This document shows, in pieces, positions 21,127-62,800 of a DNA stretch of 64,000 bases (position 1 is its first letter; every line of letters begins with the position of its first letter). The stretch comes from Nitrososphaeria archaeon (GTDB lineage Archaea; Thermoproteota; Nitrososphaeria; Conexivisphaerales; UBA164). The stretch is from positions 6,248 to 70,247 of the forward strand of contig JAWDMM010000002.1 in the NCBI GenBank assembly GCA_046536595.1, in the 5' to 3' direction. The notes under the pieces are model-generated. The model was not told where the DNA came from and made no database searches. It saw nothing but the letters and a program-made list of their open reading frames with translations. Both the position numbers and the translations under genes were made by a program.

Positions 21127-21552
21127 ATGCGTAAGGATGTATCACAGTCTACCATAATAGGAAGCCTGATAGTTATCGTTATAACGGTAATCTTAGGTAT
21201 AGCCATTCTTTCATGGGGGACCTCGCTTTTTACTTCACAACAAACAGGTTTTAACTCAATATTTTTTACAAAAACCCAGATGGTACTTGACAATTTTAAC
21301 ATTGAATATGCATACGAAAACTCTTCAAACACTTTGACTGTCTGGGTAGGAAATTACGGCCAAACCGGGGTACAGATTATAAGCGTAATGGTATATAACT
21401 CAACATATAGCTATATTTATAAGTGTAATATTATGGTGCCTCCTTCAGGTTTATCAAAGATTACAGTAAACGGGTTGCAGCTCATCAAGGGAAGCGTTTA
21501 TACAGTAAAGGTTGTTGCCTCTGATGGCAATACCGCGGTGAGTCAAACATGA
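21127..21552 (+). CDS. Small type IV pilin-like protein (class III signal peptide candidate)
   Basis: 141 aa. The N-terminus MRKDVSQSTIIGSLIVIVITVILGIAIL is paralogous to the N-terminus of the next gene (KKSGQAEIIGALFFIIILV): short basic leader, Q, then a hydrophobic helix. Confidence 0.5.
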   Translation: MRKDVSQSTIIGSLIVIVITVILGIAILSWGTSLFTSQQTGFNSIFFTKTQMVLDNFNIEYAYENSSNTLTVWVGNYGQTGVQIISVMVYNSTYSYIYKCNIMVPPSGLSKITVNGLQLIKGSVYTVKVVASDGNTAVSQT

Positions 21553-34570: not shown

Positions 34571-34644
34571 TTTATAAATAACTGCCAATTTTCATCTTTT
34601 TACTAGAGATCACGCTCTCACGGACAGGGTAGTTAACGATTTAA

Positions 34645-34719
34645 CGGGCCCGGTGGGATTCGAACCCACGACCTACAGCTTAGGAGGCTGCCGCGCTATC
34701 CAGGCTGCGCTACGGGCCC
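34645..34719 (-). tRNA. tRNA-Arg (anticodon CCU)
   Basis: The reverse complement folds as a cloverleaf: GGGCCCG UA GCGC AGCCUGGAUA GCGC G GCAGC CUCCUAA GCUGU AGGUC GUGGG UUCGAAU CCCAC CGGGCCC G. No CCA is encoded. Confidence 0.9.
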
Positions 34720-34720
34720 G

Positions 34721-34805
34721 TGCGGGGGGTGGGATTTGAACCCACGCACCCCAACGGGACGAGGTTCTAAGCCTCGCGCCATTGACCAGGCTAGGCGACC
34801 CCCGC
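34721..34805 (-). tRNA. tRNA-Leu (anticodon UAG), class II with a long variable arm
   Basis: Reverse complement: GCGGGGG..CGAGG CUUAGAA CCUCG UCCCGUUGGGGUG.. GUGGG UUCAAAU CCCAC CCCCCGC A. Confidence 0.9.
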
Positions 34806-34807
34806 GA

Positions 34808-34879
34808 TGGACCGGGGGGGACTCGAACCCCCGACCTCTCCCATGCCACGGGAGCGTTCTACCCCTGAACTACCGGCCC
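34808..34879 (-). tRNA. tRNA-Ala (anticodon GGC)
   Basis: Reverse complement: GGGCCGG UA GUUC AGGGGUA GAAC G CUCCC GUGGCAU GGGAG AGGUC GGGGG UUCGAGU CCCCC CCGGUCC A. It has the G3:U70 alanine identity pair. Confidence 0.9.
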
Positions 34880-35035: not shown

Positions 35036-35187
35036 GGTTCCGTTAACTTAAGCTCATAACCCGTTTACCTTATGCAATCAACAAAATTGGCTTAATCCAT
35101 TCTGAAAGCTGATCTTTGATGTTGCACTGTACCAATTTTTTCGTGAGCACATAGTAAAAGAACCTTAAGGCTTAAGTTAACGGCACC
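35036..35187. mobile_element. 152-bp MITE, an internal-deletion derivative of the IS6-like element at 49290-50052
   Basis: Terminal inverted repeats are ggttccgttaacttaag (35036-35052) and cttaagttaacggcacc (35171-35187). The interior (..caacaaaattggcttaatccattctgaaagctgatc..) matches the reverse complement of the right end of the IS copy (..taacaaaattggcttaatccattcagacagctgatc..). No ORF. Confidence 0.8.
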
Positions 35188-36591: not shown

Positions 36592-38086
36592 TGACCTCCT
36601 CCCCGCCCTTGAAGAGGCGAGGGTTACCTGAAGGTCTCAAGGGTTACACCCCTTTACGGGTGCTACTCTGTTGTGATCTACTATGAAAGATATAGGCTTC
36701 TTTACTTTTGAAACAATTACGTTCACTGCTTTTTTGAGAATGTTCAATGCGCCGTTAAGGTCTGAATGAAGTCTGTGTCATTTAGGGCAACTAACTACTC
36801 CTCTCGGGTTTCTGCTGACTTCTACATCATGATAAGCACAGTTCTTTGAAGTATTGTACTCAACAACCTCAAACACTTTCATGCCATACTCTTGAGCCTT
36901 AAATTCTATTGTATCCATGAATTTGCGATAAGACCACAAGTTTACCGTAAATTTATTGCCCTTCTCCTGAGCTATCTCAAAAGGGTAGCCTAAGTATATA
37001 GTTGAAACGCCTAGTTAGTGCAACTCTTTTATTAAGTGCGAAGCAAAGTTCCTGTACAAGTGACGAAATCTTCTCTTTAATTTCCCGTGTAACTTCCTCT
37101 TCTCTTTTAACAACTCCTCATACGCTTTGTATTCGCCCATGTTTTTCGTTTTGTCTGCTAATGATTGTGCTTCTGCTATTTTATTTTCAAAGTAGAAATA
37201 ATCTTCCTTAGCCCTAACGCCTTTGTACAGCAACCAAGTTCCGTCTTCTACTATCACGCTTGCCAAAACGTTGATGCCTAAGTCTATTGAAGTCATTTTG
37301 TTTCCTTTAGGCGATTCGAGCTGAACACTTTTCCTTTCGCCGTGAACAATGTATTTGCTTTTATTTCCCTTTTTAGTTATTTCAACTCCTACATCAACAG
37401 GGATTGAAGCGTACCATGCGTTCTTTGCTTCGTCGTAGTATATTTCAAGCCTTCCCTGTTTACCGTACCACCTCAGCCTGCCTACGAAATCAATTTCAAG
37501 CTCAAAATCCTTGAGGATTAACTTATGGTTCTGCTCGTCCACAACGTACCTGTTTTGTCTAATCACGAGCATTAGCTTCCTCTTCTTTGTTTCTTTATCC
37601 TTCCAGTACTTCGGTGGGCTAATGCGTTTCATGAAGGGTGGCAATTTTCCTTCTTTCTTCAGCTTCAGTAAGGAAAAGAATGAGCTCCAGGCTTCGTTGT
37701 TCTTTTTCATGACTGCTTGAGCGTTAACTCCTAATTCTTCTTTATACTTTTCATAGCATTTGTCCCACGTTGTATCGAAGTCGACATGATGTTGCTGAAA
37801 GAACTGTTGTCTCCTTTCGTAGTTAATTTCGTTGAAGAGTTTCGCTGATATGTTCGCTAACCTTTTTAGTTTCCTTTCTTGGAAACCGTTCGGAAAAAGA
37901 CGCACAATGCTTGTCCTCTTATTCGTGTGCTTAACTTCGTAGATGCCCTCCTCTGGCATTGCGGGAGAATTCGGCTCCCGCCCCTCATGCCCTAAGAGTT
38001 GACCAGAAGAGAGCATTTCAAAACAAAATAGCATTTTTAATTTAAAAGCTTTTACCTCGCCATTTATGGCGAGGTTTGTCATTCAC
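36592..38086 (-). mobile_element. IS200/IS605-family element of the tnpB-only (IS1341-like) type, decayed
   Basis: Bounded by the 10-bp direct repeat tttatcaatc (36582-36591 and 38087-38096). The left end has a perfect subterminal hairpin cctcgcc-atttat-ggcgagg (38055-38074). The right end has a related imperfect hairpin ccccgcc-cttgaaga-ggcgagg (36601-36622). There is no tnpA. Confidence 0.75.
36637..38082 (-). pseudogene. tnpB: tnpB (RNA-guided nuclease family) with two in-frame stops and an eroded zinc finger
   Basis: The tracked ORF 37015..38082 ends at TAA 37015-37017. The same frame continues LGVSTIYLGYPFEIAQEKGNKF..EYNTSKNCAYHDVEVSRNPRGVVSCPK*HRLHSDLNGALNILKKA.. with a second stop at 36778-36780. 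RuvC motifs are present (SIDLGINV, YNTSK, SDLNGALNI). Confidence 0.8.
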
Positions 38087-38129: not shown

Positions 38130-38422
38130 AGTACAGGGGTTATTCATGTTCAGAAAAAGGCTGGAAGGCATAAACGGTCCTTGAATCAGATGTAAGGGAG
38201 AAGATAACATTGATGGTTGGAAAGGTTAATCATCCTCAAACAAACGTAAAAGTTGAGTTCTTCGATTCTGTTGATGAATTCATGCAATGGTACAACTTCA
38301 TAAGGCCTCTTGAAGCGTTTGACATTGAAAGATTTGAAACTTCAGCAATAATCTATTATAAGAGGCTTCCTAAAAAGGAGATCGTTGAGCAATCATTCTT
38401 TGATATGCTGGAAGGGGTGTAA
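38130..38422 (+). pseudogene. Heavily deleted remnant of an rve (integrase-core DDE) transposase; copy A
   Basis: 38133-38190 (aaaagtacaggggttattcatgttcagaaaaaggct..) matches 50200-50255. The ORF 38210..38422 encodes only the C-terminal tail: HPQTNVKVEFFDSVDEFMQWYNFIRPLEAFD..ETSAIIYYKRL. Confidence 0.7.
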
Positions 38423-38574: not shown

Positions 38575-40050
38575 TTGGAGTATAAAAGCCTATTAGGTTC
38601 AAAAGGGTCAAAGGCCAATGAAGAGACAATTAGAGACCTAAGAATAGAAGAACTCATAAATGATATTTTGGGGAGTGATAAAAACCAGTTTTTAATTGAT
38701 GTATTTAAAGAGCCACTAAGCAACAAGAATGCAATTGATTTTAGGCTAAAAATATTCAACGATCTTATGGATGAAAAAATTTATAATGCCATAAAAAATT
38801 TTGTAAATAAAATAAAAGATTGCAACAGGTTGATGGATTTAGAGGCTAAAACATATGAAGAGTTTAAGTACGGTTTTCATATTGATGTAGCTCTAATTTA
38901 TGTAAATACGGTCGAAAATACATTAAATTTGATGCGCGAATTAAATACAAAATCAGATGGTATACTTTATTTCATTAACTATCTCGAAAATCTGATTCAG
39001 AGTGATAGATTTCAGGCTTTGAAGAGGATTACATATGAAGCGAAGACTGCCAGGGAAAAAATAAAGGTCAGAATAAACATAAACGGGGACCGAATAAGGG
39101 TTGCAAAGGAAGAAAACGGAGAAGATTTAACATCTAAGATTGAACAGTTGTTTTCGAAATTTAAAGGGCAGCAGGTCCGTGAACTTAAGTTTGATAGATA
39201 TTATGAGCAAATTACTCATATACACGCTGGAATATTAAATGGTGTTTACAGGATATTTAAAGAAGAATTTAACATTATGAAAAAATTAAAAGACGAATTC
39301 CCCGACATAGTAGATGAAGGCATCAAATCGTTTGCAAATGAGTTTGAGTTCTATCTTAAATATATCGAATATATGAAAAGCATTCAATCCAATGGATATA
39401 AATTTTCGATACCTCAATTTACCGAAGATGGGTCAATACACGTCAAAGGATTTTATAATTTGTTATTGGCTAGGAAGAATGTTGCTGTAGCTAATGATAT
39501 CCATACTACAGGTGATAAAAGGGTGTTTATAATAACAGGCATAAATAGCGGGGGAAAAACTACGTTTGCCATTACTTTTGGACAATTAGCATTTCTCTCT
39601 TTAATAGGCGTGCCTATCCCTGCAGAAGAGGCCAAAATATTCTTGTTTTCTAATATAATGACGGCTTTTCCAACAGAAGAGGATAAAATGGAGGATTTAA
39701 GCAGGTTAGAAAAGGATGTAGAAAGAGTACACAACATTTTAAAAACAGCTGATGATAAAACGCTCGTCATAGTTAACGAGCTTTTCTCTTCCACAACTTC
39801 GGAGGAAGGCTTTGAACTAGCAAAGCGTTTTATAGAAAAAATAACAAGCAAAGGATCATATCTTGTTTATGTGACATTTATTACAAAGATAGCCACACTT
39901 GAAAACGTTATCAGTCTTGTGACACAAATACAAGACGAGAAACCGACTTTCAAAATCATAGAAAGCAATCCTCTTTCTAAATATATGGCAATTCAAATAG
40001 CATCTAAGCATCGCCTACTTTATGAAGATATTAAAAGTGATCTTGGATGA
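38575..40050 (+). CDS. MutS-family ABC ATPase (core/lever plus domain V only), paralog 1
   Basis: 491 aa with Walker A ITGINSGGKTTF, a MutS-like signature region EDLSRLEKDVERV, and Walker B TLVIVNELFSSTT. There is no mismatch-binding, Smr or other nuclease domain. TTG start. Confidence 0.75.
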   Translation: MEYKSLLGSKGSKANEETIRDLRIEELINDILGSDKNQFLIDVFKEPLSNKNAIDFRLKIFNDLMDEKIYNAIKNFVNKIKDCNRLMDLEAKTYEEFKYGFHIDVALIYVNTVENTLNLMRELNTKSDGILYFINYLENLIQSDRFQALKRITYEAKTAREKIKVRININGDRIRVAKEENGEDLTSKIEQLFSKFKGQQVRELKFDRYYEQITHIHAGILNGVYRIFKEEFNIMKKLKDEFPDIVDEGIKSFANEFEFYLKYIEYMKSIQSNGYKFSIPQFTEDGSIHVKGFYNLLLARKNVAVANDIHTTGDKRVFIITGINSGGKTTFAITFGQLAFLSLIGVPIPAEEAKIFLFSNIMTAFPTEEDKMEDLSRLEKDVERVHNILKTADDKTLVIVNELFSSTTSEEGFELAKRFIEKITSKGSYLVYVTFITKIATLENVISLVTQIQDEKPTFKIIESNPLSKYMAIQIASKHRLLYEDIKSDLG

Positions 40051-41507
40051 TCCAGTTTGACCTTCTAAAGCTAAGCGATGCCCCTGAAATTGAAGACAAA
40101 AATAATCTAAAGAAAGATTTAGAGCTGGAGAAAATAATAGAAATAATAGCCCAAAAGGATGATCTGGTACAAAAGGTATGGGAGCATGTGCTTTTGTTAT
40201 CTAAAGCCGATATCAATTCTATAAAATACAGACAGGAAGCTGTTAAAGATGCTATTCAGAATAGAGATACAGTATTAAACATGTACAAATTTACGGGGGA
40301 GGTCATAGATAGGACAATAAGGGCGGCATTTATTGTTACGTACGATAATCCAGAGTTAATAGTTTACGATACAGCAAATGGGATAAAGGTAATGATAGAT
40401 GCGTTAAAAGATTTAAAAGACATTCTTGATAGATCGAGCTTCTTATCTGAAGCTTTTCGGGAACTGATAAGCTCTATAAAAGAGAACATAGATGACAATT
40501 TTATAGTTTCCGCAAAAGAACTAATGGGTTTTCTTGATATTAGAAGTGGCACAGAATTTTCTGTTAGGCTCAGCATGTACAACACTTTAAGTGACCCTGT
40601 ATTTTTAATTCATGAAAAGGAAAGGAGCTTAATGAAAAGAATAATTAGCAGGAAAAATGATTACGTTTTTAGATTGGAGCCGCGAGATGAAGTAGGTGCA
40701 GAAATTTTGGGAAAGATTAATGAATGGGTTTTAAGTGGTTTGGCTCCAACAATGCTTGAGGCTTATGAGCATTTATTGCAGTTTTTCACAACCTTACATA
40801 CGCAACTGGCTTTCTTTGTAGGCGCCATAAACCTTTACGATTTCTTTAAAAAGATCGAACTGCCTTTGGCTTATCCAGATTTTTCTGAAGGTACAATATC
40901 ATTTCGCGATCTATACTGCCTCTCCTTGGCAATATCAAAAAATGAAAAACCTGTCCCAAATTCTCTTGATGTCCATAACATAAATGCATTCATAATAAGT
41001 GGGATCAATAAAGGCGGCAAAACTACATTCTTAAAAGCTATAGGTCAAGCAATACTGCTTGCAAGGGCCGGGCTCTTTGTGCCGGCCAATAATTTTATAA
41101 TTCCATCTTCGGGGAATGTTTTTACTCATTTTCAGAGAGAGGAAGAAAGGACACTGTCATATGGGAAATTTGAAGAAGAAATAATAAGGTTCAGAAAAAT
41201 AATTGAATCGCTAAAGGCTGGAGACTATGTTTTAATGAACGAAAGCTTCTCATCAACTAACCAGGTTGAGGCATCCGTAGTAGCTAAACAAGTTGTATCT
41301 GCCCTAATAGATAGCAAAATAACTGTTTTTTACGTTACGTTTTTGCAGGACTTCATATATGATTTTATTAAAGAAAATAAAAATAAGGCCGTTCTATTAA
41401 CCCCTGAAAGGCTAAAAGATGGAACAAGAACGTTCAAGTTAGTACAAGGCTTTGTTCAGTCAGGATATGCGTTAGAGATATGGGACAAATATTTTATGGA
41501 AAATTGA
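40047..41507 (+). CDS. MutS-family ABC ATPase (core/lever plus domain V only), paralog 2
   Basis: 486 aa with Walker A ISGINKGGKTTF, the signature region TLSYGKFEEEIIRF, and Walker B YVLMNESFSSTN. The start ATG overlaps the upstream stop by 4 nt. Confidence 0.75.
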   Translation: MIQFDLLKLSDAPEIEDKNNLKKDLELEKIIEIIAQKDDLVQKVWEHVLLLSKADINSIKYRQEAVKDAIQNRDTVLNMYKFTGEVIDRTIRAAFIVTYDNPELIVYDTANGIKVMIDALKDLKDILDRSSFLSEAFRELISSIKENIDDNFIVSAKELMGFLDIRSGTEFSVRLSMYNTLSDPVFLIHEKERSLMKRIISRKNDYVFRLEPRDEVGAEILGKINEWVLSGLAPTMLEAYEHLLQFFTTLHTQLAFFVGAINLYDFFKKIELPLAYPDFSEGTISFRDLYCLSLAISKNEKPVPNSLDVHNINAFIISGINKGGKTTFLKAIGQAILLARAGLFVPANNFIIPSSGNVFTHFQREEERTLSYGKFEEEIIRFRKIIESLKAGDYVLMNESFSSTNQVEASVVAKQVVSALIDSKITVFYVTFLQDFIYDFIKENKNKAVLLTPERLKDGTRTFKLVQGFVQSGYALEIWDKYFMEN

Positions 41508-42833: not shown

Positions 42834-44564
42834 TTAAAACCTAGATATATAAATTATAATAAATAGAAACATTATAATTAGATATATTATGTATATATTT
42901 ATTTGGCTGTTCATTACATAATATGATATATATTTGGCAATTTTTTTGCATGTCAGTGTAAATTTGACTAGCGAATCCCAGAATATGTTTCTTGCATATG
43001 TATATTCATTAGGTGTATACAATGATTTGAGTATAAGTTTTAGGTTATTGCTAAATGCACTTGGTGTATACTTTTCCTGAATTGCTTCTCCATTGTTCCA
43101 AACTGGTACTCTCCTAAGTTTGTTCTTTCCAAATGCAAAATATGTCACTAATGTAAACAAGCCTATAAGAAGGCCTACATATAAAGGCGAAATTCCACCA
43201 AAAGTTGACCCAGATTCTTTAAGGGAGATTATAATGAAATATGTAAAAAGATTTGGTGCAGAGCTAGTAAAAATTGAATCAAGCGCATTAACTATTATTG
43301 AAGAGATCATGCCAGAAAATAGCACGATTAGACCCATTATAAAAATGGAAAAGTTTCCCTTTTTTTCTGATGAAGAAAATACACCCGAAAAGGCTATGAA
43401 TTTAATCATAACTGCCGTGATCAAACCTTCAGTCATTGCCATTATCGTTCCCACAAATAAGAAGAGAAGACCAAATAATGAATTTCTTTCAACGAATGCT
43501 GACATGAACATTATCTCGAGAAGCATCCAGGTTGCAACGCCTCCTATATTAGGAAGCAAACCTGAAAGTGACGATGCAAGAAGAAGCCTGCCCACATCAA
43601 CCTGTCTAGAACTTATTCCGGTTGAACTTGACATATATTCGCTTTTTATAAGCCCACTTATCATAAATATTCCGCTTTTTGCAAAAGAATGGGCCAAGCT
43701 GAAAAGGGCAACACCTATAACAGAAAATAATGCAATAGTATTATTAGGGGCAAACAGCGAAACCCCCAGCAGAAGAAGAATTGACCCATAACTTTCGACT
43801 GAACTATATGCTGGAAGCATCTTATAATGATCTGAAGCGTGTGAATACAGTGCGCCAAAGAATGCAGTAAATGCGCCTACACTTATAAGCAGTAACCCCA
43901 GATCGGGGTCAATTGGGCTAAGCATTGACATTTTAATTATTCCATAAACACCCATGAGTGGCATTGTTGCACTTAATGCTGCAGAAACGTTTGCCGGTGC
44001 ACTGCTATGGGCTATTGGCAGCCATTCTACAAGTAAAAATGGAAATGCCCCCATTTTTAATAGAAAGCCTATTACTGTTAAATCCAATGGAAGCGTCGAC
44101 GTAAGACGAGTAAAGGCAATTGAGCCTGTCTGCGAATATGCTAGCGCAAACCCCAGCAGTATAAATATAGTGCTAAGTTCGCTAAACGCCATAAAAATAA
44201 ATGATGGAAAGCTCTTTTCCCTATGTATGCCCAAAATAAAATATGCAGATATACTCATTATTTCCCAGCCGCTCAAAAATATCAGATAGTTCCCTGAAGT
44301 CAGCACCAACGACATGCCAGCTAACATAATTGCAAACAGAGGAGAAAGCCACCTGCCATATCTGTCATAGGAAATCGAATAGATTGATATCATTGCCCAA
44401 GATACGCTGGTTATAAGCCAAAACAGGTGCAATATGTTAAAGCTAAAAACTGCTACTGCAGCCATAAAAATCGAAGTAATGACTAACGCAAAATATCCAG
44501 TTTTTCTATTTGCTATAGCCAATATGGCTGAAAAGAAAAATAATGTAGGTATGATAATATTCAT
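42834..44564 (-). CDS. NuoL/HycC/HyfB-like antiporter-type membrane subunit
   Basis: 576 aa and polytopic, with the proton-pumping-subunit motif LVEWLPIAHSSAPANVSAALSATM. Confidence 0.8.
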   Translation of the reverse strand: MNIIIPTLFFFSAILAIANRKTGYFALVITSIFMAAVAVFSFNILHLFWLITSVSWAMISIYSISYDRYGRWLSPLFAIMLAGMSLVLTSGNYLIFLSGWEIMSISAYFILGIHREKSFPSFIFMAFSELSTIFILLGFALAYSQTGSIAFTRLTSTLPLDLTVIGFLLKMGAFPFLLVEWLPIAHSSAPANVSAALSATMPLMGVYGIIKMSMLSPIDPDLGLLLISVGAFTAFFGALYSHASDHYKMLPAYSSVESYGSILLLLGVSLFAPNNTIALFSVIGVALFSLAHSFAKSGIFMISGLIKSEYMSSSTGISSRQVDVGRLLLASSLSGLLPNIGGVATWMLLEIMFMSAFVERNSLFGLLFLFVGTIMAMTEGLITAVMIKFIAFSGVFSSSEKKGNFSIFIMGLIVLFSGMISSIIVNALDSIFTSSAPNLFTYFIIISLKESGSTFGGISPLYVGLLIGLFTLVTYFAFGKNKLRRVPVWNNGEAIQEKYTPSAFSNNLKLILKSLYTPNEYTYARNIFWDSLVKFTLTCKKIAKYISYYVMNSQINIYIIYLIIMFLFIIIYISRF

Positions 44565-45166
44565 TGCATTTCACCGTATTTTATTTTAACCAAGGTGTAA
44601 AGATATGTGTATGGATTTGGGGGGCATCCAGGCACCACGGCATCAAACTTTATGGGCATTTTGCTCATAATGGCACCACTGCAACCAGCTATCGCAATTT
44701 TTGGTTCAGGCATTGAATCATATGCTCTTACTAATGGTTCTATCATTTTTTCTGATAACTTCCCAAGGACTATAAGGGCATCAGCGTGTTTTGGAGTGTT
44801 AACAAAAAAAATCCCAAATCTACTAATATCATAATGTGGACTTGTCAAAGCATTTAATTCTAAATTGCATCCGCCGCATGATCCAACATCTATTGGATAA
44901 ATAAACAAAGATTTCTTAAACGCTTTATTATAATTGTTAACAATTCCTATTCTGGAATCACCTGTTGGATGGTAATTAGGAAAACACATTCTGCAAAAAA
45001 TGCATTTTTCAGGATCCCATTTACCTTCGTTTATGGCACCAGTTGGACAGTAGCTATTGCCCTTTCCCGTGATTCTGGTTGACCAACCGGGCAAGTATTC
45101 TTGATTCCCCACTGGAAATCTTTCAGTCTTTATTCCATTTTTTAATCCCTTTAAAAACCAGTTCAT
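44561..45166 (-). CDS. NuoB/HycG-like [4Fe-4S] small subunit with an N-terminal single-cluster ferredoxin stub
   Basis: 201 aa. The C-terminal part has VGSCGGCNLE .. IAGCSGA .. VPGCPPNP (HycG/NuoB cysteine pattern). The N-terminal part has ..YCPTGAI..(12 aa)..CIFCRMCFPNYHP, which is one CP plus one CxxCxxC. Confidence 0.75.
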   Translation of the reverse strand: MNWFLKGLKNGIKTERFPVGNQEYLPGWSTRITGKGNSYCPTGAINEGKWDPEKCIFCRMCFPNYHPTGDSRIGIVNNYNKAFKKSLFIYPIDVGSCGGCNLELNALTSPHYDISRFGIFFVNTPKHADALIVLGKLSEKMIEPLVRAYDSMPEPKIAIAGCSGAIMSKMPIKFDAVVPGCPPNPYTYLYTLVKIKYGEMQ

Positions 45167-46284
45167 ACAAATTTCACCCCCAATTCAGACGACCAAATCC
45201 CAAAACTTTCCCAGTTAAATGGAAAATCAGTAAATATATTACCCACCATTGACTTTACAAAAAAATCTAAATTGATTTCTGATGGCGAAAGCAAATAAAC
45301 TTCTTTTATTTTTTCATCAATTATTTTTACAAAATACGCCAGGTCCCCTGATGGCGATTCCACCCTTCCAATCCCATCGCCGTTAATCACTGGCGGCGTA
45401 ATCGCATACTTGGTTTTGATTATGTCAAGTGCGTTGTAAATTATTTCTGCAGATTTTTCTATTTCTGAAGCTCTGACCATGAACCTTCCAAGTGCATCAC
45501 CGCTTTCTTGTAATATACCGCCTTTAAAATCAAGGTCGCTATAAGGTAAGTAGTCAGCGTCAATTCTCGCATCATAGTTAAAGCCTGCTGCACGAGCTGC
45601 AGGTCCAATTAAGCTATCATCCTTTATGATACCATTTTTGTCCAATCTATCAAGAAATATTCTAGTATCAAGCAGGTCATTAAATATTTCATTAAACTGT
45701 TTAACAATAATTGAAAGCTGACCCCTAAGTTCTTGAAATTTACCAACTTCGCTGTTAAAGAAAAATCTATGACCATAAGCTACATCTATGGCTCTATTTA
45801 TAAGTTCACGAAGATAAAAAAGCATGTTTGATGCAACTCCCTGGGAAGATGCTTCAACCATTCGGCCTATCACATGTAAATTATTTCTTATCCTTTCTAG
45901 TTCAATTCTAACTATCATATCAAGCTTCATATTATAATCTATATCCTTGCTACATGCAATAAGAAACGCAGCGCGATGAGCCGCTGAAAAGTTGGCATTT
46001 ATGCGCTCCACTACTGCAAGAGCGTCTTTGACCTTCATGCCAGATATCGTAAAAATTCTATCCTTATATAGCATTGGCCTTATCTTCAATATTTTTTCTC
46101 CAGAAGTATGTATGTTAAATCCAATCGATTCTATTAAACCCCCAGCAGAAGGGCCATACATAAAATTAAACGTCCCATATTCCTGTTCTATAGTGGGCTC
46201 AGGGCTTATTACTTCAGCTTTTTCTAGTCCATTTGAAAAAAGCACATAATCACCCAGTCTTCCAATTTTTCTACCTCTGTTCAT
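45163..46284 (-). CDS. NuoD/HycE-like large subunit homolog lacking NiFe-binding cysteines
   Basis: 373 aa. VERINANFSAAHRAAF sits where hydrogenases have ERxCGxCxxxH. The C-terminus ..NWESFGIWSSELGVKFV sits where DPCxxCxxR/H is expected. The only cysteine is a single residue in FLIACSKD. No NuoC-like domain. Confidence 0.75.
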   Translation of the reverse strand: MNRGRKIGRLGDYVLFSNGLEKAEVISPEPTIEQEYGTFNFMYGPSAGGLIESIGFNIHTSGEKILKIRPMLYKDRIFTISGMKVKDALAVVERINANFSAAHRAAFLIACSKDIDYNMKLDMIVRIELERIRNNLHVIGRMVEASSQGVASNMLFYLRELINRAIDVAYGHRFFFNSEVGKFQELRGQLSIIVKQFNEIFNDLLDTRIFLDRLDKNGIIKDDSLIGPAARAAGFNYDARIDADYLPYSDLDFKGGILQESGDALGRFMVRASEIEKSAEIIYNALDIIKTKYAITPPVINGDGIGRVESPSGDLAYFVKIIDEKIKEVYLLSPSEINLDFFVKSMVGNIFTDFPFNWESFGIWSSELGVKFV

Positions 46285-47591
46285 ATATAAATCACCAAAA
46301 ATAATCCTAATAATAGAGGCACTAAAGATGCTATAACTGCTACTGCCGCCATAATTTTTGGATCAGACTGCCTTTTGTTTCCGCTAAATACCATCTTTGT
46401 TACATTGTAGTTTACTGATATAAATGCCAGAGCTATGATTAAGGCAAGAAATATTGCCTCATACGTTAGTCCAATTTTAAAAAGCTGTATCAATATAAGG
46501 AATTCTCCTACAAAGTTTGCAAATGGGGGTGCTCCTGTAACTGCAAGTGAAGAAAGTATCAATGATGATGATGTAAATCTTAATCCTTGGGCACCGTTTA
46601 CATCATCAATATTTTTTGTGCCATACTTGCGGTTTATTATGCCAGAAGAATAAAACGCACCTGCTTTCGCAAACGCATGGGCTATGAGCAAAATCTCGGC
46701 ACCAATTATACCAAGCCCGCCTATAACAAATCCTATCAATGCTATATTCATGTTTTCCATTGAGGAATAAGCAAACATCCTCTTGAAATTCTTTTGATTG
46801 AGCAATGCTATTGAAGCAAAGGTAACTGACATCATTCCGAATGCAATAAAAAGTACCATTTCGGGATCAAGCTGGTAAACCATATAAAGCACGTAAAGCG
46901 CAGTGGGGAGCAGTATTCCAGAAAACATGGCACTTACTGGGGCTGGAGCCTCGCTATGAGCATCAGGAAGCCATGTGTGTACAGGGAAAACCCCTATCTT
47001 AGTACCAAACCCGACAAGAGCTATTCCTACGGCAAGTGCGAGAACCTTGGAATTTTTAGTGATCGCTAGGGCCGTAGATACTGTCAGCGTGCCCAACGAA
47101 TAATAAATAAGTATAATTGAAATAAAAGCCACAGCGACACCGGCAGAAACTAGCACAATGTATCTCCATGCAGCTTCTATGGAGGTTTCAGACTTCTCCA
47201 TAAATAGCAATAGAGCGGAAGTGATAGTTGTTGCCTCTATACCTACCCACATAAGCCCATAGTTATTGACCATAACGGTAAAAATCATAGATGCTGCAAA
47301 TAGGTCAATTAAAGCATAGTATAAATTTTCAGAAAGTGAAGGATTAGCAATGTAATTCAAGGAATAGATCGTAGATAACAGATAAATTGAAACGATCATA
47401 ATAACAAACAACCATGAAATTTTATTAATTAGATAAAAATTTACCTGCAAGTGCTTATAAAGTAGCAGTGAAAGCAGAAGGTCGACAGAAGATGTAGCAA
47501 TAGATGTTTGCTTGTACCACCGCGTAAATCCTGAAAGTGAAGCCAAAGCCGGCATCATAATTATCAGAGTAGGCAATAACATGGTTATCAA
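46281..47591 (-). CDS. NuoM/N/HyfF-like antiporter-type membrane subunit
   Basis: 436 aa and polytopic, with the motif FPVHTWLPDAHSEAPAPVSAMFSGILL. Confidence 0.8.
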   Translation of the reverse strand: MITMLLPTLIIMMPALASLSGFTRWYKQTSIATSSVDLLLSLLLYKHLQVNFYLINKISWLFVIMIVSIYLLSTIYSLNYIANPSLSENLYYALIDLFAASMIFTVMVNNYGLMWVGIEATTITSALLLFMEKSETSIEAAWRYIVLVSAGVAVAFISIILIYYSLGTLTVSTALAITKNSKVLALAVGIALVGFGTKIGVFPVHTWLPDAHSEAPAPVSAMFSGILLPTALYVLYMVYQLDPEMVLFIAFGMMSVTFASIALLNQKNFKRMFAYSSMENMNIALIGFVIGGLGIIGAEILLIAHAFAKAGAFYSSGIINRKYGTKNIDDVNGAQGLRFTSSSLILSSLAVTGAPPFANFVGEFLILIQLFKIGLTYEAIFLALIIALAFISVNYNVTKMVFSGNKRQSDPKIMAAVAVIASLVPLLLGLFLVIYI

Positions 47592-48214
47592 CCTCTTAAT
47601 TCTTCCATGGGGAAGTGCTCTTCCTTTTCAATTATAACTACGGTAGAAATTATGACGAGGCCTATAACATCGAGAAGCACACTAGCTTCAATAAGAAGCG
47701 GTAGGCTTATTATAAAAAGGCCAAACAGCACAAGTGCATTTTCCTCTTCCACATAACCTATTATCTGAATATGCGTATTCCTCCTTGATGCTATAAGAAA
47801 CAGGCCTTGGAAAAACAGTGCAGTTGCAAAAAGCAGCAGTGCATTGTTTAATTCTAAATACGATATAAAGAAGAATTGAAATATTATAAGTACAAACATT
47901 GTCATGAAAAGATCTATTATAAGAGATGATGCTACACCTTTCAGGGATTCCCTTTTTAGCTCTGGAATAAATTTAAGAGATTTATTTAGCATATGTGTAA
48001 TAGCAATAGCCCTTAATACTATTACCAGAAATCCAAATTCGATCAGATACAAATTGGGTTCTAAGAAACCTATTGCAAGTATCATAACCCCAATGATTAA
48101 CGATTCAATTTCCAACCCAGTAATTGCCGGCTTTATATAGGCCTGTCCCTGAATGTAAAATGCATTTAAAAGTACCAGCATTAAAATTATTTCATAAAAA
48201 GAGTATTGAATCAT
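47588..48214 (-). CDS. HyfE-like (extended NuoK-like) membrane subunit
   Basis: 208 aa. ASRRNTHIQIIGYVEEENALVLFGLF..EASVLLDVIGLVII parallels E. coli HyfE ..SQRNILRQIFGYCLMENGSHLV..EIGIATDAIFAVIV. Confidence 0.7.
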   Translation of the reverse strand: MIQYSFYEIILMLVLLNAFYIQGQAYIKPAITGLEIESLIIGVMILAIGFLEPNLYLIEFGFLVIVLRAIAITHMLNKSLKFIPELKRESLKGVASSLIIDLFMTMFVLIIFQFFFISYLELNNALLLFATALFFQGLFLIASRRNTHIQIIGYVEEENALVLFGLFIISLPLLIEASVLLDVIGLVIISTVVIIEKEEHFPMEELRG

Positions 48215-49158
48215 ATTCCTCCACCAATTATTGTAAATATTAATGAAAGTACAGACACTGTAAAAGCTATTGAAAGATAATCCTGAATTTTAAATAGCCT
48301 TAATTTTGCCAATGATGTTTCAATTATAAGCGATATCCCTATCAGAATTAACCATTTTAAAAACATAACAGCTGGGTCTAAAAGGTAGCCAAATTGCCCA
48401 TTAAACAACCAAAAAGGCATCAAAAATACATTTAGTAGGACGGAACCAAGTAGATATTGTTTCATATAAGACCCCCACTTTAAAATCCCAAGGAGCTTCC
48501 CGCTGTATTCATAGTTAAGCCCCTCATCAATCATTCCCATTTCAGATAAACCAGAGCTTTCTACTGGGAGTCTGCCACTTTCAAACAGCCATAACATAAA
48601 AAATGCTATCGTGCCAAATAAATGATCTAGCAAAAGGTAATTTTCAGGATTACTAACTGTATTTAAAGTTATATAAGGATTGTTTGTTCCTGTAATTAAT
48701 GCAACCGCAAAGAAAACCGAAATCAAGGTACCTTCGCTTAAAAACATAAAGGATGTAACTCTGGCAGCAGATAAAGCCACAAAATTGCTCCTGCTGCTCA
48801 ATGCACCATTGATTTTTATAAATGATGCAAGAGTAAAAAGTATAGCACCCCCAAGAAAATCTACCGTTGCTGTAAAGGCTATGGGCGATGGAATAACAAC
48901 AGGAATAACAAACGAAATAAGTATGTAAATTGCAAATATAATATAGGGAGCAGCTATAAATATCTGGCTGGCTTCAACTGGTATTAAGGTTTCTTTTTTT
49001 AATAATTTGAATATATCATAATATGGTTGCAGAATACTTGGACCTTGCTTGCCTTCTATCATCGCCTTAGCTTTACCAAAAATACCTACATACAATGGCG
49101 CAGAAAATACAGTAAATAAAACCTGTATGACGGCGCCTTCTATGATTTGTAATGACAT
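48211..49158 (-). CDS. NuoH/HycD-like membrane subunit
   Basis: 315 aa. The N-terminus ..APLYVGIFGKAKAMIEGKQGPSILQPYYDIFKLLKKE parallels HycD ..APLLSGITRVARARLHNRRGPGVLQEYRDIIKLL. Confidence 0.8.
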   Translation of the reverse strand: MSLQIIEGAVIQVLFTVFSAPLYVGIFGKAKAMIEGKQGPSILQPYYDIFKLLKKETLIPVEASQIFIAAPYIIFAIYILISFVIPVVIPSPIAFTATVDFLGGAILFTLASFIKINGALSSRSNFVALSAARVTSFMFLSEGTLISVFFAVALITGTNNPYITLNTVSNPENYLLLDHLFGTIAFFMLWLFESGRLPVESSGLSEMGMIDEGLNYEYSGKLLGILKWGSYMKQYLLGSVLLNVFLMPFWLFNGQFGYLLDPAVMFLKWLILIGISLIIETSLAKLRLFKIQDYLSIAFTVSVLSLIFTIIGGGI

Positions 49159-49289: not shown

Positions 49290-50052
49290 GGTGCCGTTAA
49301 CTTAAGGCTTAAAATTTATTTTTCAGCGGGGCCCTATTTATAGCAAATGATCTTACAAACCAGAAAAAGGACCCCAATAGCACTTATACTCTATGCCTTA
49401 TATCTTTATTTCTCCAGTTTGAGCTTGAGGAGGGCTTCCCATGTACTCGAGCCAATAATTAAGAGAAGCCACGTTGCAATATGGAAATGGATTCAGAAGT
49501 ATTCTTTCGTATTCGACTCTGACGTTGACAAACACGATGTCAATTTCATATTTATTAATGAAACTAAAATAAACATTGGTGGAAAGAAAGCTTGGCTATG
49601 GGTAGCGTATGAACCTCAACTCAAAGCGTTCCTATCGTTTTACATAAGCTGGCACCAGAACTCTCTTATGCTTTTTCATAAGGAAGCTTGTAAAGAAGTA
49701 TGGTAAGAAGACTATCTACACAGAGCTCTTAGGTACGTTGATGCTCGCAGGTGGGCAAGGGTAGATCATGTTGTATATGAACATAGCCTGAAGAACCTCA
49801 TGTAAAGGATGAATGAATATATAAAGGACAGGACAGAAGCTTTTGACGACCTTTTCCCGTGCAAAAAGCCAAAATTTGAGCACGTAAAGAACTGGTTCAA
49901 AGCATTCATTCAGGTTCTTCTATAACTATGTATTCACGAACGAAGAAATTGGTGCAGCGCCATTATCAAATGATCAGCTGTCTGAATGGATTAAGCCAAT
50001 TTTGTTAATTGCAAGCATGAGGTGATCAGAATGAGCTTAAGTTAACGGCACC
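49290..50052 (+). mobile_element. IS6-family-like insertion sequence (763 bp), non-autonomous copy
   Basis: Perfect 17-bp terminal inverted repeats: ggtgccgttaacttaag (49290-49306) and its complement (50036-50052). It is flanked by an 8-bp direct duplication. The size, GG-initiated repeats, 8-bp duplication and single DDE gene fit the IS6 family. Confidence 0.8.
49347..49925 (+). pseudogene. Frameshifted DDE transposase of the IS6-like element
   Basis: ORF 49347..49706 reads ..HVAIWKWIQKYS..FIFINETKINIGGKKAWLWVAYEP.., so the expected first catalytic D (DET) is N. Downstream the protein continues only across other frames and stops (..VKKYGKKTIYT.., ..ARRWARVDHVVYEHSLKNLM*RMNEYIKDRTEAFDDLFP..). 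Confidence 0.7.
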
Positions 50053-50188: not shown

Positions 50189-50762
50189 ATGAGAAGACTT
50201 AGTACAGGGGTTATACATGTTCAGAAAAAAGCTGTAAGACATAAAAGGCCTGTTCCTGAGAGCGTTAGGAATGAAATCGTTGAGCTGTACAGAAAATACA
50301 GAATTAGCGCAAGCTATAACGGCAAAATTCTCAAAGCGAAAGGATTACACATCAGAAATGAAAAGATGAACCAAGTCCTCAAGGAGGTTGGTTTTGCAAT
50401 GAGCGAGCCTAAAAAGTAGCACAGAAAGAAGTGGATAAGGTATGAGAGAGAAAATTCTAATTCATTATGGCAAGTTGATTGGCACGAAATGAAGGATCCA
50501 AGGTGGAAGGGTTTATGGCTGATCGTGTATGAAGATGATTCATCAAGATTTATAGTGGGTTATGGCGTTTATCCAACTCCGGCATCAAAGTTCTTCGATT
50601 TTTGTTGATAAATTTATGCACTTGTACAACTTCATAAGGCCACATGGAGCATTTGACTTTGAAAGGCTTGAAACTCCAGCAGTTATATTTTATCAAAAGC
50701 TATCTAAGAGGAGAGTTATAATGGACACAACATTGCTGGAGAATATTCAAGGGATCAAATGA
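50189..50762 (+). pseudogene. Internally deleted rve (integrase-core DDE) transposase; copy B
   Basis: The HTH part is intact (ORF 50189..50419). After a stop the frame reads ..KKWIRYERENSNSLWQVDWHEMKDPRWKGLWLIVYEDDSSRFIVGYGVY.. and then jumps directly to the C-terminal tail ..FVDKFMHLYNFIRPHGAFD..ETPAVIFYQKL (50562..50762). The catalytic middle is missing. Confidence 0.7.
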
Positions 50763-59882: not shown

Positions 59883-62800
59883 CTACATGTATATTTGAAC
59901 CATACCAGTGCCTACAGGTATGGTGGAGCCAACTATAACGTTTTCTGTTACTCCAAGAAGTTCATCTGAAAGGCCTCTGGCTGCAGCTTCAGCAATGGTC
60001 GGGACTGTTATTTCGAACGCTGCCTTTGCAAGCACGCTAGTTTTGAATCCAACTATTCCGTGCCTTCCAACAGGCAGCACGACGCCCCTGCTTGTCATGA
60101 TGTCAGCTATCAGCGAAACATGTCTGTAATCGACTTCAAGGCCCTGTTCGTTCAACACCTCAAGTATTTCCTTAATAAGCACGTTTCTTGCGGCCTCTAT
60201 GCCAAGTACGTTTGCCACTTCATGGATGTTGTTGGTTATAGTCCTTGTAGGATCTACGTGAGGGATTGCTAGTACTTTTGAAAGGTTAGATCCGCTGGTC
60301 TCTATCATCCATTCCCCTTCTTTGTTAACAACTGAAGCGTTTATAATTCCTGGAACACCGCTTATTCTCGAATTAAGCATCTTTTTCTGTATGGCTTGAA
60401 GTCCTGTCAGTTCATAGGTGTTAGCGTATACTGTTATCTGATTACCGTTAACTTCAATCTTTCTTTTACCCCCTTCGATCGATCTGGCCACTTCCTCTGG
60501 AGTAAGACCTCTGTCTTTTAATTTTTGAGGTGAGAGAGTGAAGACTATTATTCCATCAGTAGGTTCCACTGCAGTATCAGAAACAACGCTTTCAAGCTTT
60601 GTAAATATTATCGACCTTGCAACCTCCTGAGCCTTATCTGCTGACGATCTGTACTCTTCATCAAGATATATCTCCATTAACGGCGTTGTAGGCTCCTTAC
60701 GTGCATCAAGGAGTTCTATCAACCTTGGCAAACCAAGTGTTACATCTCTTTCTTTTACTCCTGCAAAGTGGAAGGTTCTGAGCGTCATCTGTGTACCGGG
60801 TTCTCCAACAGATTGAGCTGATACCACTCCTACCGCTTCTCCGGGTTCCACTAAGCTGTAAATGTATTTTTCAACTGTTTTGTTGCAGACTTCAGTCACT
60901 GCTTTTTCGCTTAATCCTGAACCCAGCAAGGCGTTTTCCAAATCTTTTACGAGCCTCGGATTTAATCTCTCCTTTACTTTTTCAACTTCTGACTTAATGT
61001 AACTTTGTGAAGCTGGCTTTCCAGAATCTGTTGTCTTGATTATTTCAACAAGCCTCTTTATGTTGACCGCAAGACCGTGATCGCTTTTTGATACGTCAAC
61101 ACCGTCTTCTCCGTACGTAAACTGTATGATCCCGCCTTCAGGATCCCTTACGGTAAGGTCGTACTCAACCCTCAGGTGTTCAAGAGCGTTTATAAGTCTT
61201 CTCTGTAGGTAACCGCTTTGCTGTGTCCTAACAGCTGTATCTACTAAGCCTTCTCTTCCTGCCATCGAATGGAACACAAACTCAAGTACGTTCAGGCCGT
61301 CCCTGAAACAGCTGCTCACGAAGCCTGTTGCTTCAGGGGTAATGTCTCCTTTCTTAAAGTGGCTCAAAGCCCTCTGTGTATAACCTCTAGTTATCCTCTT
61401 GCCCCTTATGCTTTGTTGTCCGAGCATTGCCATCATCTGCCCAAGGTTAAGGCTGCTTCCCCTTGCTCCTGTTCTGGCCATTATATAGCCGCTGTTTTCT
61501 TCGTTAATTACTCTTTCAACTACTTTAGCAGCTTTATCCCTGGCTTTACTCAGTTCGTTCATTATGTAGTTTTCCAGCATGTCTTCGGGCCTTACTCCTT
61601 TAAGTATGGGCAGCTTGTTTTCCCTGTACTGTGTTATATAGTTGAGAACGTTTTCGTATGCTTCTTTAACGACTTCCTTTAGCTGTCTTTTGACGTTTTC
61701 CGGTATTTCAAGCTCATCATATCCGTAAGAAAAGCCTCTACGGGTTAAGTGTTCAACGAACATCTTTAATAATGAGTTTAAAAGCTTTCTTGAAGTTTCA
61801 GGGCCGTAATCTTTAGTTATCCTGTGAAGCATACTATCGGGTTCTTCAGCCCCAAGAGAAGATTTATCGAGCACTCCGGAAATCAGTTGGCCGTTCTTAA
61901 CAAGTATATCGTTTTTAGCGCCTCCAACCCATTTGGACGTTCCGACAAAATTAAAGTCCTTTGGCAGGAAAAGAGATACGAGCTCTTTCCCAGTATAATA
62001 TTCCTTTTCTGGTATCTCCCCTTTATAACCTCCTACGTATGCAAGGTTCATCAGATCCTGTTTGCTCAGCTTTGTTTTATCTCTTGTAAGCATGTAAGCA
62101 CCGGTTATATAATCCCTTATAGCGCCCATGATCGGCGCTCCATATCTGGGCGTTATTATCTGGTTCTGAACTGCCATCAGATGCTTTGCCTCTGCCTGAG
62201 CGTCCAGGCTCTGAGGTACATGAAGGTTCATTTCGTCACCGTCAAAGTCAGCGTTGTAAGGCGGACACACAGCAGGATGTAACCTGAAAGTTCTGCCCGG
62301 CAGAACTTTTACAAAGTGCGCCATTATTGACATCCTGTGCAAAGAAGGCTGTCTGTTAAATAAGACGACATCGCCGTTCATTAAGTGCCTTTCCACAACA
62401 TAATCATACGTTAAAGTGTTTGCCAGAGATTCCCTATCCTGCACATAATCCAACCTTATCTTAATTCCATCAGGCCTTATGACGTAGTTAGCCCCTGGAT
62501 AGTTATCCGGCCCGTTCTTTACCATTTCTTTAAGGAAATCGATGTTCCAGGGGGTTACTCTTTCCGGGACTGTTAATCTTTTTGCTATTTCAAAAGGTAT
62601 TCCAACCTCAGCCATGTCTATGTTTGGATCCGGAGAAATAACAGTCCTGCTTGAGAAATCAACCCTTTTTCCTGAAAGGTTCCCTCTGAACCTACCTTCC
62701 TTACCCTTGAGCCTTTGTGCCAAAGTCCTTAGAGGCCTTCCTGACCTGTGATGAGCTTGAGGTATTCCAGAGACCTCATTGTCGAAATAAGTTGTTACGT

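Follow-up and report, generated by a model that had tools for sequence, protein, structure and literature searches.

A predicted nickel-free, six-subunit hydrogenase relative in an uncultured Nitrososphaeria archaeon and its possible role as a ferredoxin-fed ion pump

What does a hydrogenase-like membrane complex without a nickel–iron (NiFe) site do? The question is raised by a six-gene operon on the minus strand of a 64,000-nt stretch of DNA (the window, to which all positions refer) from an uncultured, Conexivisphaerales-like Nitrososphaeria archaeon of a hot spring. A reading of this DNA alone (the original prediction) had likened the operon to the complexes called energy-converting-hydrogenase-related (Ehr), as the subunit set of hydrogenase 4 (Hyf) and formate hydrogenlyase (FHL) without the NiFe site, and every feature that we tested agrees. 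We are highly confident that the operon encodes an intact, selectively maintained six-subunit complex of the Ehr type.

Within the complex I superfamily, Ehr complexes form a widespread class that has been catalogued for about twenty years without an assigned substrate, and the operon adds one more member from an uncultured member of the Nitrososphaeria. Our analysis also delimits a tight archaeal sub-family of Ehr by the invariant replacement of the NiFe ligands, and brings out a predicted minimal two-cluster electron wire, in which half of a HycF/NuoI-type ferredoxin is fused to the small subunit. Together with conserved channel residues and purifying selection, the sub-family signature and the wire lead to a concrete hypothesis, that of a ferredoxin-fed ion pump.

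The name Ehr is traced to Geobacter (Coppi 2005) in a passage of PMC7894505, and also to Marreiros et al. 2013 in a passage of PMC6349859. Six-gene ehrABCDLS sets have been described in Methylacidiphilum (PMC6688271) and Sulfobacillus (PMC4378227), and Ehr has been reported in some ammonia-oxidising archaea (PMC10432482). The archaeal family is not new: it was noticed in 2013 in acid-mine Thermoplasmatales, in which the missing nickel motifs were taken as ‘possibly indicating some other function’ (PMC3750248), and NCBIfam already offers dedicated models for two of its subunits. Up to May 2026, all of these papers, as well as PMC10284858 and PMC13194489, term the function of Ehr unknown or assume that it has none, in line with the earlier statement that no role has been established for the class.

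A tightly packed six-gene operon

The operon consists of six intact open reading frames (ORFs), which match the predicted coordinates and strand exactly and for which Pfam, NCBIfam and hhalign matches bear out the predicted subunit identities. We denote them H-E-F-D-B-L in transcription order. Gene 1 (H; 48211–49158, 315 amino acids (aa)) encodes a HycD/HyfC/NuoH-like membrane subunit (PF00146, E = 3.6e-30) and gene 2 (E; 47588–48214, 208 aa) a HyfE-like membrane subunit, recognized by a weak match to NF008556 and by hhalign to Escherichia coli HyfE. Gene 3 (F; 46281–47591) encodes a HyfF/NuoM–N-like, antiporter-type subunit (PF00361 and NF005042) of 436 aa from a TTG at 47591 or 433 aa from an ATG at 47582. 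The NuoD/HycE-like large subunit without a NiFe site is encoded by gene 4 (D; 45163–46284, 373 aa; PF00346) and the NuoB/HycG-like small subunit, which carries an N-terminal half-ferredoxin, by gene 5 (B; 44561–45166, 201 aa; PF01058 and partial Fer4). Gene 6 (L; 42834–44564, 576 aa; PF00361 and NF005046) encodes a HyfB/HycC/NuoL-like, antiporter-type subunit. All six lie on the minus strand.

Start and stop codons overlap as ATGA at four junctions (H/E, F/D, D/B and B/L). The E/F junction reads TTGA, and a 4-nt overlap exists there only if TTG 47591 is the start; from ATG 47582, 9 nt downstream, gene 3 would encode 433 aa and leave a 5-nt spacer. The JGI gene caller picked the equivalent ATG (433 aa) in contigs that are approximately 97–98% identical. 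The claim that all five overlaps measure exactly 4 nt therefore holds at four junctions and depends on the TTG start at the fifth. The six genes are tightly packed whichever gene 3 start holds.

The rest of the window is ordinary archaeal chromosome, with a his operon, LeuRS, AlaRS, pyruvate kinase, H+-pyrophosphatase, S7/S12/NusA and RpoA. Annotated window ORFs of at least 100 aa include neither hyp genes nor a gene for a maturation protease or a formate dehydrogenase, and none of nuoA/C/E/F/G/I/J, in agreement with the reported lack of hyp genes, maturation endopeptidase, formate dehydrogenase and NuoA/J/E/F/G.

The large subunit has a remodelled, metal-free pocket

We aligned the large subunit to 119 homologues, adding HycE, HyfG and NuoCD of E. 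coli. It contains a single cysteine in 373 residues, which lies outside the conserved columns of the family, and no CxxC motif. The four NiFe ligands of HycE are all replaced: C241 by N96 (N in 100% of the 119 homologues), C244 by F99 (F or H in the family), C531 by W364 (W in 97%) and C534 by E367 (E in 98%). The sequence R-I-N-A-N-F-S-A-A-H occupies the position of RxCGxCxxxH, and F-G-I-W-S-S-E-L-G that of DPCxxCxxH/R; both motifs are likewise absent from the 119 homologues. The predicted loss of both CxxC motifs is thus borne out, with N, F/H, W and E in the ligand columns. Metal ligands retained at shifted positions would have spoken against that prediction, and a search of the family alignment for cryptic NiFe or quinone ligands at such positions yielded none.

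The quinone ligands of complex I are absent as well, as NuoCD H224 corresponds to L, M or I and Y273 to G or A. Judged by its aligned residues, the site is thus suited neither to NiFe nor, in the canonical way, to quinone. In the family, the pocket residues N96, W364, E367, E52 and R94 are nearly invariant, and such strong conservation of a remodelled site argues for a retained function. The chain stops soon after the C-terminal motif and so has no protease-cleaved C-terminal extension. At the other end, the alignment of the family profile with HycE does not begin before approximately residue 208 of the deposited chain, which indicates that the NuoC-like domain is absent, as had been proposed. 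Neither the large nor the small subunit has a hydrophobic segment.

The closest solved homologue by family profile is MbhL (6cfw_L; 138 bits, 3.3e-39), with Nqo4 (6e-28) and HycE (8.7e-28) behind it; NuoD-type chains and HycE score approximately 100 bits and MbsL 83 bits. When the large subunit was used as a single sequence against the PDB, MbsL ranked top. An AlphaFold 2 (AF2) model (predicted local distance difference test (pLDDT) 89.4, predicted template modelling (pTM) score 0.91) has the NuoD/HycE fold, with a template modelling score of approximately 0.8 to NuoD/HycE chains. A fold search with this model confirmed the fold but could not tell complex I, NDH-1 and FHL apart. In a profile search over 1.84 billion representative proteins, which gave 384 matches below 1e-30, an N-terminal motif that starts with R-N was limited to the top approximately 20 clusters, most of which have the full R-N-[FHY]...W-E signature. 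Below them rank other Cys-less groups, and true RxCxxC hydrogenases appear from approximately 190 bits downward.

The small subunit carries a half-ferredoxin

The best solved homologues of the small subunit are HycG (7z0s_G) and then MbhJ (6cfw_J). The ligands of its proximal [4Fe–4S] cluster are C97, C100, C162 and C181, of which C97-x-x-C100 (CGGC) is of the hydrogenase type and not the CC of complex I. Orthologues invariably have C97 and C100, and 99% of them have C181. The third and fourth ligands usually lie in GxCAISGG and GCPP; here C162 sits in a shortened loop, AGCSGA. In the nearest relative (L001 11128–11730/P0387, 61–66% identity), the fourth proximal Cys of GCPP is changed to Ser (PGSPP) and the third-ligand loop reads GCSC, with an extra Cys, which suggests a ligand swap within the Nitrososphaeria clade.

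Upstream of this domain lies the ‘ferredoxin stub’ of the original prediction (residues 1 to approximately 75; 44942–45166, minus strand), which proves to be a truncated half of HycF/HyfH/NuoI. Over its approximately 75 residues, hhalign pairs it with the N-terminal halves of HycF, HyfH and NuoI from E. coli (probability 95%, E = 1e-8 to 3e-8); the match takes in the G-x-x-T-x-x-(Y/F)-P motif at the N terminus. From the two CxxCxxCxxxCP motifs, the stub retains C40 (the CP Cys of motif 1) and C55, C58 and C61 (the CxxCxxC of motif 2); the other four Cys are lost. The quartet is present in 96% of 78 orthologues. In 2×[4Fe–4S] ferredoxins, a Cys quartet of this kind supplies the ligands of one cluster, here the one that we take to correspond to N6b, the neighbour of N2, in Thermus thermophilus complex I. 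Together, the stub and the proximal site have eight conserved Cys, enough for two clusters, and these are kept in 96–100% of orthologues. The AF2 model of the small subunit has a pLDDT of 83, with 68–90 in the stub.

Because E. coli hycF and hyfH sit between the large- and small-subunit genes, the stub represents a truncated copy that has been fused in its ancestral place. Bacterial relatives that are more distant (from Sphingomonas, for instance, 261–268 aa) have a complete two-cluster domain fused in this way, with 12–13 Cys, and a second archaeal group (Nitrososphaerales-type, approximately 240–256 aa) has a reduced small subunit with eight Cys. The four-Cys stub is absent from the copies of Methanobacteriaceae metagenome-assembled genomes (MAGs) and of one Micrarchaeota MAG (L015, L069 and L085). 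The large subunits of L015 and L085 cluster in a neighbour-joining tree, from which L069, with a split large-subunit gene, was left out.

Membrane subunits keep the proton-channel residues

Across 71 orthologues, the HycD-like subunit keeps residues that are common to HycD, HyfC and NuoH (Q44, D48, K51, R133, E142, E217, Y218, K268 and R287) as well as residues found only in the hydrogenase type (D100, E193 and K233). Gene 2 reaches 26.8 bits against NF008556 (‘hydrogenase 4 membrane subunit’), which is below the cut-off, and its family aligns with E. coli HyfE over 172 columns (hhalign probability 91.5%); hhalign comparisons with NuoK, NuoJ and NuoA gave nothing significant, and only a local RRN-type motif is NuoK-like.

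Gene 3 matches NF005042 (‘hydrogenase 4 subunit F’) with 561.7 bits (cut-off 437) and gene 6 matches NF005046 (‘hydrogenase 4 subunit B’) with 568.3 bits (cut-off 460). In gene 3, E119 (transmembrane helix (TM) 5), K198 (TM7) and E363 (TM12) correspond to NuoM E144, K234 and E407 and are kept in 71–72 of 72 orthologues. In gene 6, E101, K170 and K296 are invariant and H292 occurs in 69 of 70 orthologues. The C terminus of gene 6 has a non-TM stretch of approximately 70 residues followed by a last TM (550–576), and resembles the lateral helix and anchor of NuoL/HyfB. Both NCBIfam models are equivalogs that fit full-length and above cut-off. They would bestow the names ‘hydrogenase 4 subunit F’ and ‘hydrogenase 4 subunit B’ on parts of a complex that is unable to work as a NiFe hydrogenase, so that the error in naming is systematic.

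Relation to known complexes

The operon combines the features by which Ehr is recognized, namely, a large subunit homologous to those of group 4 hydrogenases and to NuoD from which the NiFe motifs are gone, a small subunit with the proximal cluster, and equivalents of ehrABCD. The Ehr sets of Geobacter sulfurreducens, Methylacidiphilum and Sulfobacillus have the same six kinds of subunit, likened by the published descriptions (PMC7894505, PMC6688271, PMC4378227 and PMC3750248). The archaeal clade differs from other Ehr complexes in its own N, F/H, W, E signature at the old ligand positions, and from bacterial relatives in having a one-cluster stub where they have a full two-cluster ferredoxin domain. 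Judged by homology, the complex is a nickel-free descendant of an Mbh/Hyf-like group 4 hydrogenase. Only two proteins are left of its peripheral arm.

With E. coli hydrogenase 4/FHL-2 (hyfABCDEFGHI), the operon shares homologues of HyfC, HyfE, HyfF, HyfG, HyfH (the stub), HyfI and HyfB. Their relative order agrees too, except that the HyfB homologue lies at the operon end; the HyfH counterpart is reduced to one cluster and fused to that of HyfI. In contrast to hydrogenase 4, there is no NiFe site, NuoC-like domain, HyfA, HyfD, HyfJ or FdhF/hyp context. Ech (EchA–F) likewise has six subunits and a ferredoxin-linked, complex-I-like core, but it has a NiFe site, a separate two-cluster EchF, an EchD and one antiporter-like subunit, whereas there are two here and a HyfE-like subunit. 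The membrane-bound hydrogenase (MBH) of Pyrococcus furiosus (6CFW) provides the closest solved large subunit, MbhL, and the second-closest small subunit, MbhJ. Its structure comprises 14 subunits, with NuoC-like and NuoI-like proteins that stand on their own, an Mrp module and a NiFe site, all of which are absent here. According to the literature, MBH is ferredoxin-dependent and ion-translocating. A functional analogy is also possible with cyanobacterial NDH-1 and Fpo-like complexes, which have no NuoEFG and pump protons as they pass electrons from ferredoxin on to a carrier in the membrane. Their core, however, comprises at least 11 subunits, and they have the His/Tyr pair of NuoD and the CC motif of NuoB, which the six-gene complex lacks.

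Other assignments fit less well. The four Cys ligands and the cleavable C-terminal extension of group 4 [NiFe]-hydrogenases are missing, and no hyp or protease gene is among the annotated window ORFs. Complex I is at odds with six genes in all 66 complete loci (see below), with NuoI present only as a fused half and with the lack of any significant NuoA, NuoJ or NuoK match. The thirteen-subunit, Mrp-containing set of MBS/Mbx contrasts with six subunits here and, by family profile, with 83 bits for MbsL versus 138 bits for MbhL. An Mrp antiporter would not have NuoB/D/H-like redox subunits, and the operon has no MrpE/F/G-like genes.

Distribution and selection

In a pattern scan of one genome per species, we found 77 archaeal loci with the module, the majority in Thermoplasmata; the loci of Saccharolobus solfataricus came from a separate look-up. 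Carriers among the Sulfolobales in the scan are Stygiolobus, Metallosphaera and Acidianus. Marsarchaeota, Micrarchaeota, a ‘Thaumarchaeota’ MAG (the nearest, with 61% identity) and a few Methanobacteriaceae MAGs contribute single or few loci. The order HEFDBL occurs in 60 loci and its circular permutation FDBLHE in 6, all from one clade, which together give 66 complete loci. In the neighbour-joining tree, with E. coli HycE and HyfG as outgroups, Marsarchaeota fall inside a Sulfolobales clade and Methanobacterium groups with Micrarchaeota.

When the flanks within 6 kb were clustered over the fetched loci, no flanking-ORF family recurred across lineages. The six genes therefore form a module complete in itself rather than a piece of a nuo operon, and the alternative raised with the original prediction, that they are one part of a split canonical nuo/fpo operon, finds no support in the 66 loci. 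A gene for a 657-aa molybdopterin oxidoreductase lies approximately 4 kb upstream of the S. solfataricus module on the opposite strand; considered as a linked electron-input or electron-output partner, it was rejected because it is not conserved elsewhere.

All six ORFs are intact in three environmental strains that are approximately 97–98% identical, with ratios of nonsynonymous to synonymous polymorphism (pN/pS) of 0.20–0.23. The S. solfataricus module (L002 8681–14685 and L003) is decayed: its HyfF-like gene is frameshifted into two frames, and a DDE_Tnp_2 transposase gene splits its NuoL-like gene. The module is thus dispensable in at least that aerobe. In aerobic Metallosphaera the operon is intact. 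Disabling mutations in other isolates had been named as evidence that would count against a working module; none occurs in the three close strains, and the broken copies are those of S. solfataricus.

A candidate ferredoxin-fed ion pump

We propose, with a probability of roughly 45%, that the complex uses redox energy to translocate ions and takes up its electrons through the stub cluster. A soluble, low-potential one-electron carrier, most plausibly ferredoxin, would donate electrons at the surface cluster of the stub, from which they would pass to the proximal cluster and on to an acceptor in the remodelled pocket at the interface of the large, small and HycD-like subunits. The acceptor would not be H+. 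A membrane quinone would be the most likely choice, although we regard this particular identification as doubtful. The free energy released would drive translocation of protons (or other cations) through the HycD-like and HyfE-like subunits and the two antiporter-like subunits. Conservation of the two-cluster ligand set, the metal-free pocket and the proton-channel residues, together with purifying selection, is consistent with this scheme.

The hypothesis is worth testing because the reoxidation of ferredoxin in Sulfolobus and Thermoplasma has been stated to be unresolved (PMC2946596), a gap that a ferredoxin-fed pump would address. In its widest form, the proposal is that the acidophile-associated archaeal Ehr clade is the missing ferredoxin-reoxidizing membrane enzyme of thermoacidophilic archaea and the smallest complex-I-type proton pump, with six subunits and two Fe–S clusters, in which a metal-free pocket of N96, W364 and E367 (plus F/H99) reduces quinone or another acceptor; we put this forward as a speculation with the odds against it. 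Cultured hosts with an apparently intact operon exist in Metallosphaera, Acidianus, Stygiolobus and Oxyplasma.

Several observations weigh against a ferredoxin-fed, quinone-reducing pump. No donor or acceptor partner is linked to the operon across lineages. As the H224 and Y273 of NuoCD are replaced and the HycD-like subunit is of the hydrogenase type rather than the NuoH type, any quinone site would have to be non-canonical. The copies in Methanobacteriaceae MAGs have no stub, and to our knowledge Methanobacteriaceae lack quinones; these copies may work differently. Among the named homologue matches there is none from Sulfolobus acidocaldarius, and the module of S. solfataricus is decayed, so that the complex cannot be a universal route of ferredoxin oxidation in aerobic Sulfolobales. 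Finally, in the literature on the Sulfolobales, Thermoplasmatales and Conexivisphaera copies we found no specific expression or biochemical data.

The same architecture and conserved residues would be compatible with reverse operation, in which the inward proton gradient of acidophiles pushes electrons from quinol or another mid-potential donor onto ferredoxin for biosynthesis, as in Ech or Rnf running backwards. Machines of the complex I superfamily are reversible, and the carriers belong mostly to acidophile lineages (Sulfolobales, Thermoplasmatales, Marsarchaeota, Micrarchaeota and the Conexivisphaerales-like host). However, the carriers include many heterotrophs, which generate reduced ferredoxin instead of requiring it (PMC2946596), and the pocket residues define no acceptor or donor site; we consider this direction unlikely. 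The acidophile bias would also suit a proton or cation transporter for pH or ion homeostasis, with a hydrogenase-like cap that is structural or acts as a redox sensor or gate and has no turnover at the old NiFe pocket. The operon has no linked partner for electron input or output, ligands for metal and for quinone are both missing from the pocket, some members of the family lack the stub cluster, and a role in pH homeostasis has been suggested for ehrABCDLS of Methylacidiphilum (PMC6688271). A passive cap would leave unexplained why the eight Fe–S cysteines are kept in 96–100% of orthologues and why N96, W364, E367, E52 and R94 are nearly invariant; because a working electron path and site fits this conservation better, we judge such a transporter improbable. 

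A sulfur- or polysulfide-reducing enzyme of the MBS/Mbx kind, or another ferredoxin-dependent respiratory reductase that does not use quinone, is suggested by the top rank of MbsL in the single-sequence PDB search and by the decay of the module in the aerobe S. solfataricus, and several carriers (Acidianus, Stygiolobus and relatives of Thermoplasma and Conexivisphaera) reduce sulfur. By family profile, however, MbsL is the lowest of the relevant homologues (83 versus 138 bits for MbhL), the large subunit has no conserved Cys, six subunits leave no room for an extra module of the Mrp type, and the operon is intact in aerobic Metallosphaera, all of which makes a sulfur reductase quite improbable. 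Clear homology to both families could still hide a genuine [NiFe] hydrogenase whose ligands have shifted, or half of a canonical nuo/fpo operon that has been split. We give these options very little credence, as the one Cys among 373 residues is non-conserved and there is no C-terminal extension for maturation by a protease, and as the module is self-contained in 66 loci, has CxxC instead of CC in its small subunit and lacks the NuoD quinone ligands. Nor does a decaying, functionless relic agree with a pN/pS of approximately 0.2, six intact ORFs in three other strains, a full ordered set in 66 loci and nearly invariant functional residues; despite the broken copies of S. solfataricus and the treatment of Geobacter Ehr as non-functional in a 2026 paper (PMC13194489), such a relic is highly improbable.

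Insertion sequences at the locus are later arrivals

The operon had been placed on an AT-rich, insertion sequence (IS)-flanked block, from which mobility of the whole module was deduced. Its six genes have a GC content of 0.34–0.38, compared with approximately 0.39–0.45 in housekeeping genes, and a GC content at third codon positions (GC3) of 0.28–0.34, compared with 0.35–0.45; the adjacent MutS-like genes and one MFS gene are also low. The block is thus poorer in GC than the housekeeping genes, as claimed, but the shift is only modest.

The flanking IS elements are there. A decayed IS6-family element of 763 bp (49290–50052) lies 132 bp upstream of the operon ATG and has perfect 17-bp terminal inverted repeats, GGTGCCGTTAACTTAAG, which have 4 matches in the window versus 0.06 expected. 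Its ORF (49347–49706, 119 aa) matches the N-terminal half of the transposase model NF033587 with E = 1.7e-18, below the cut-off, and the rest is broken; a Pfam scan of the 763-bp element gave no match, and the identification comes from NCBIfam. A miniature IS6 copy of 152 bp with the same ends lies at 35036–35187, beside a tRNA cluster, and together the two copies bracket 14.1 kb with the operon inside. Downstream of the operon, at 4.7 kb, is an IS605-family TnpB (OrfB) gene (37015–38082, minus strand; PF01385, E = 1.1e-22), whose product has 355 aa here versus 434 aa in strain L006.

Mobility of the module by way of these elements does not follow. Strains L004 and L005, which are approximately 98% identical, have the operon and a HAD gene at the same place and no IS6 copy there; a compound transposon made of the 14.1 kb between the IS6 copies was therefore rejected as evidence of mobility. 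The MFS and MutS-like neighbours are also found in a relative with 66% nucleotide identity, in which the operon has the opposite orientation with respect to them. The presence of the operon at the same locus without IS6, together with the neighbours kept in this relative, indicates that the IS elements arrived later. An older lateral transfer, on a deeper time scale, is plausible in view of the low GC3, the patchy distribution and the misplaced branches of the tree.

Neighbouring genes and other features of the window

An overlapping pair of genes for MutS-domain-V ATPases of approximately 490 aa (38575–41507) adjoins the operon. MutS-like pairs also occur near the operon elsewhere (L001 2430–5389, L024 10261–13280, L026 15924–18952 and L043 252–3324), usually co-directional and 126–830 bp from it; the carriers are Nitrososphaeria, Marsarchaeota and one MAG each of Thermoprotei and Thermoplasmata. 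Between lineages the pairs are approximately 30–36% identical, even where the Ehr proteins are 59–73% identical. PADLOC gave a single marginal match for the pair (mad8, E = 8e-4), which we do not take as evidence.

The tRNA genes Arg-CCT, Leu-TAG and Ala-GGC lie end to end at 34644–34879 and directly adjoin the miniature IS6 copy and the low-GC3 block; in the ARAGORN prediction, the Arg and Leu genes share one base. A pair of repeats that are 80–90% identical occurs at 38130–38373, beyond the TnpB gene, and at 50201–50707, beyond the IS6 element.

Elsewhere in the window, a 186-aa ORF of the phage integrase family (19037–19597) adjoins an Alba gene, and a 707-aa ORF (21549–23672) has no Pfam match. 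RpoA is encoded as a single unsplit protein of 1247 aa (59883–63626) with Rpb1 domains 1–5, and its close homologues in Nitrososphaeria/Conexivisphaerales are similarly long; it is 87% identical to that of a ‘Nitrososphaeria archaeon’ MAG and 77% identical to that of a Conexivisphaerales MAG.

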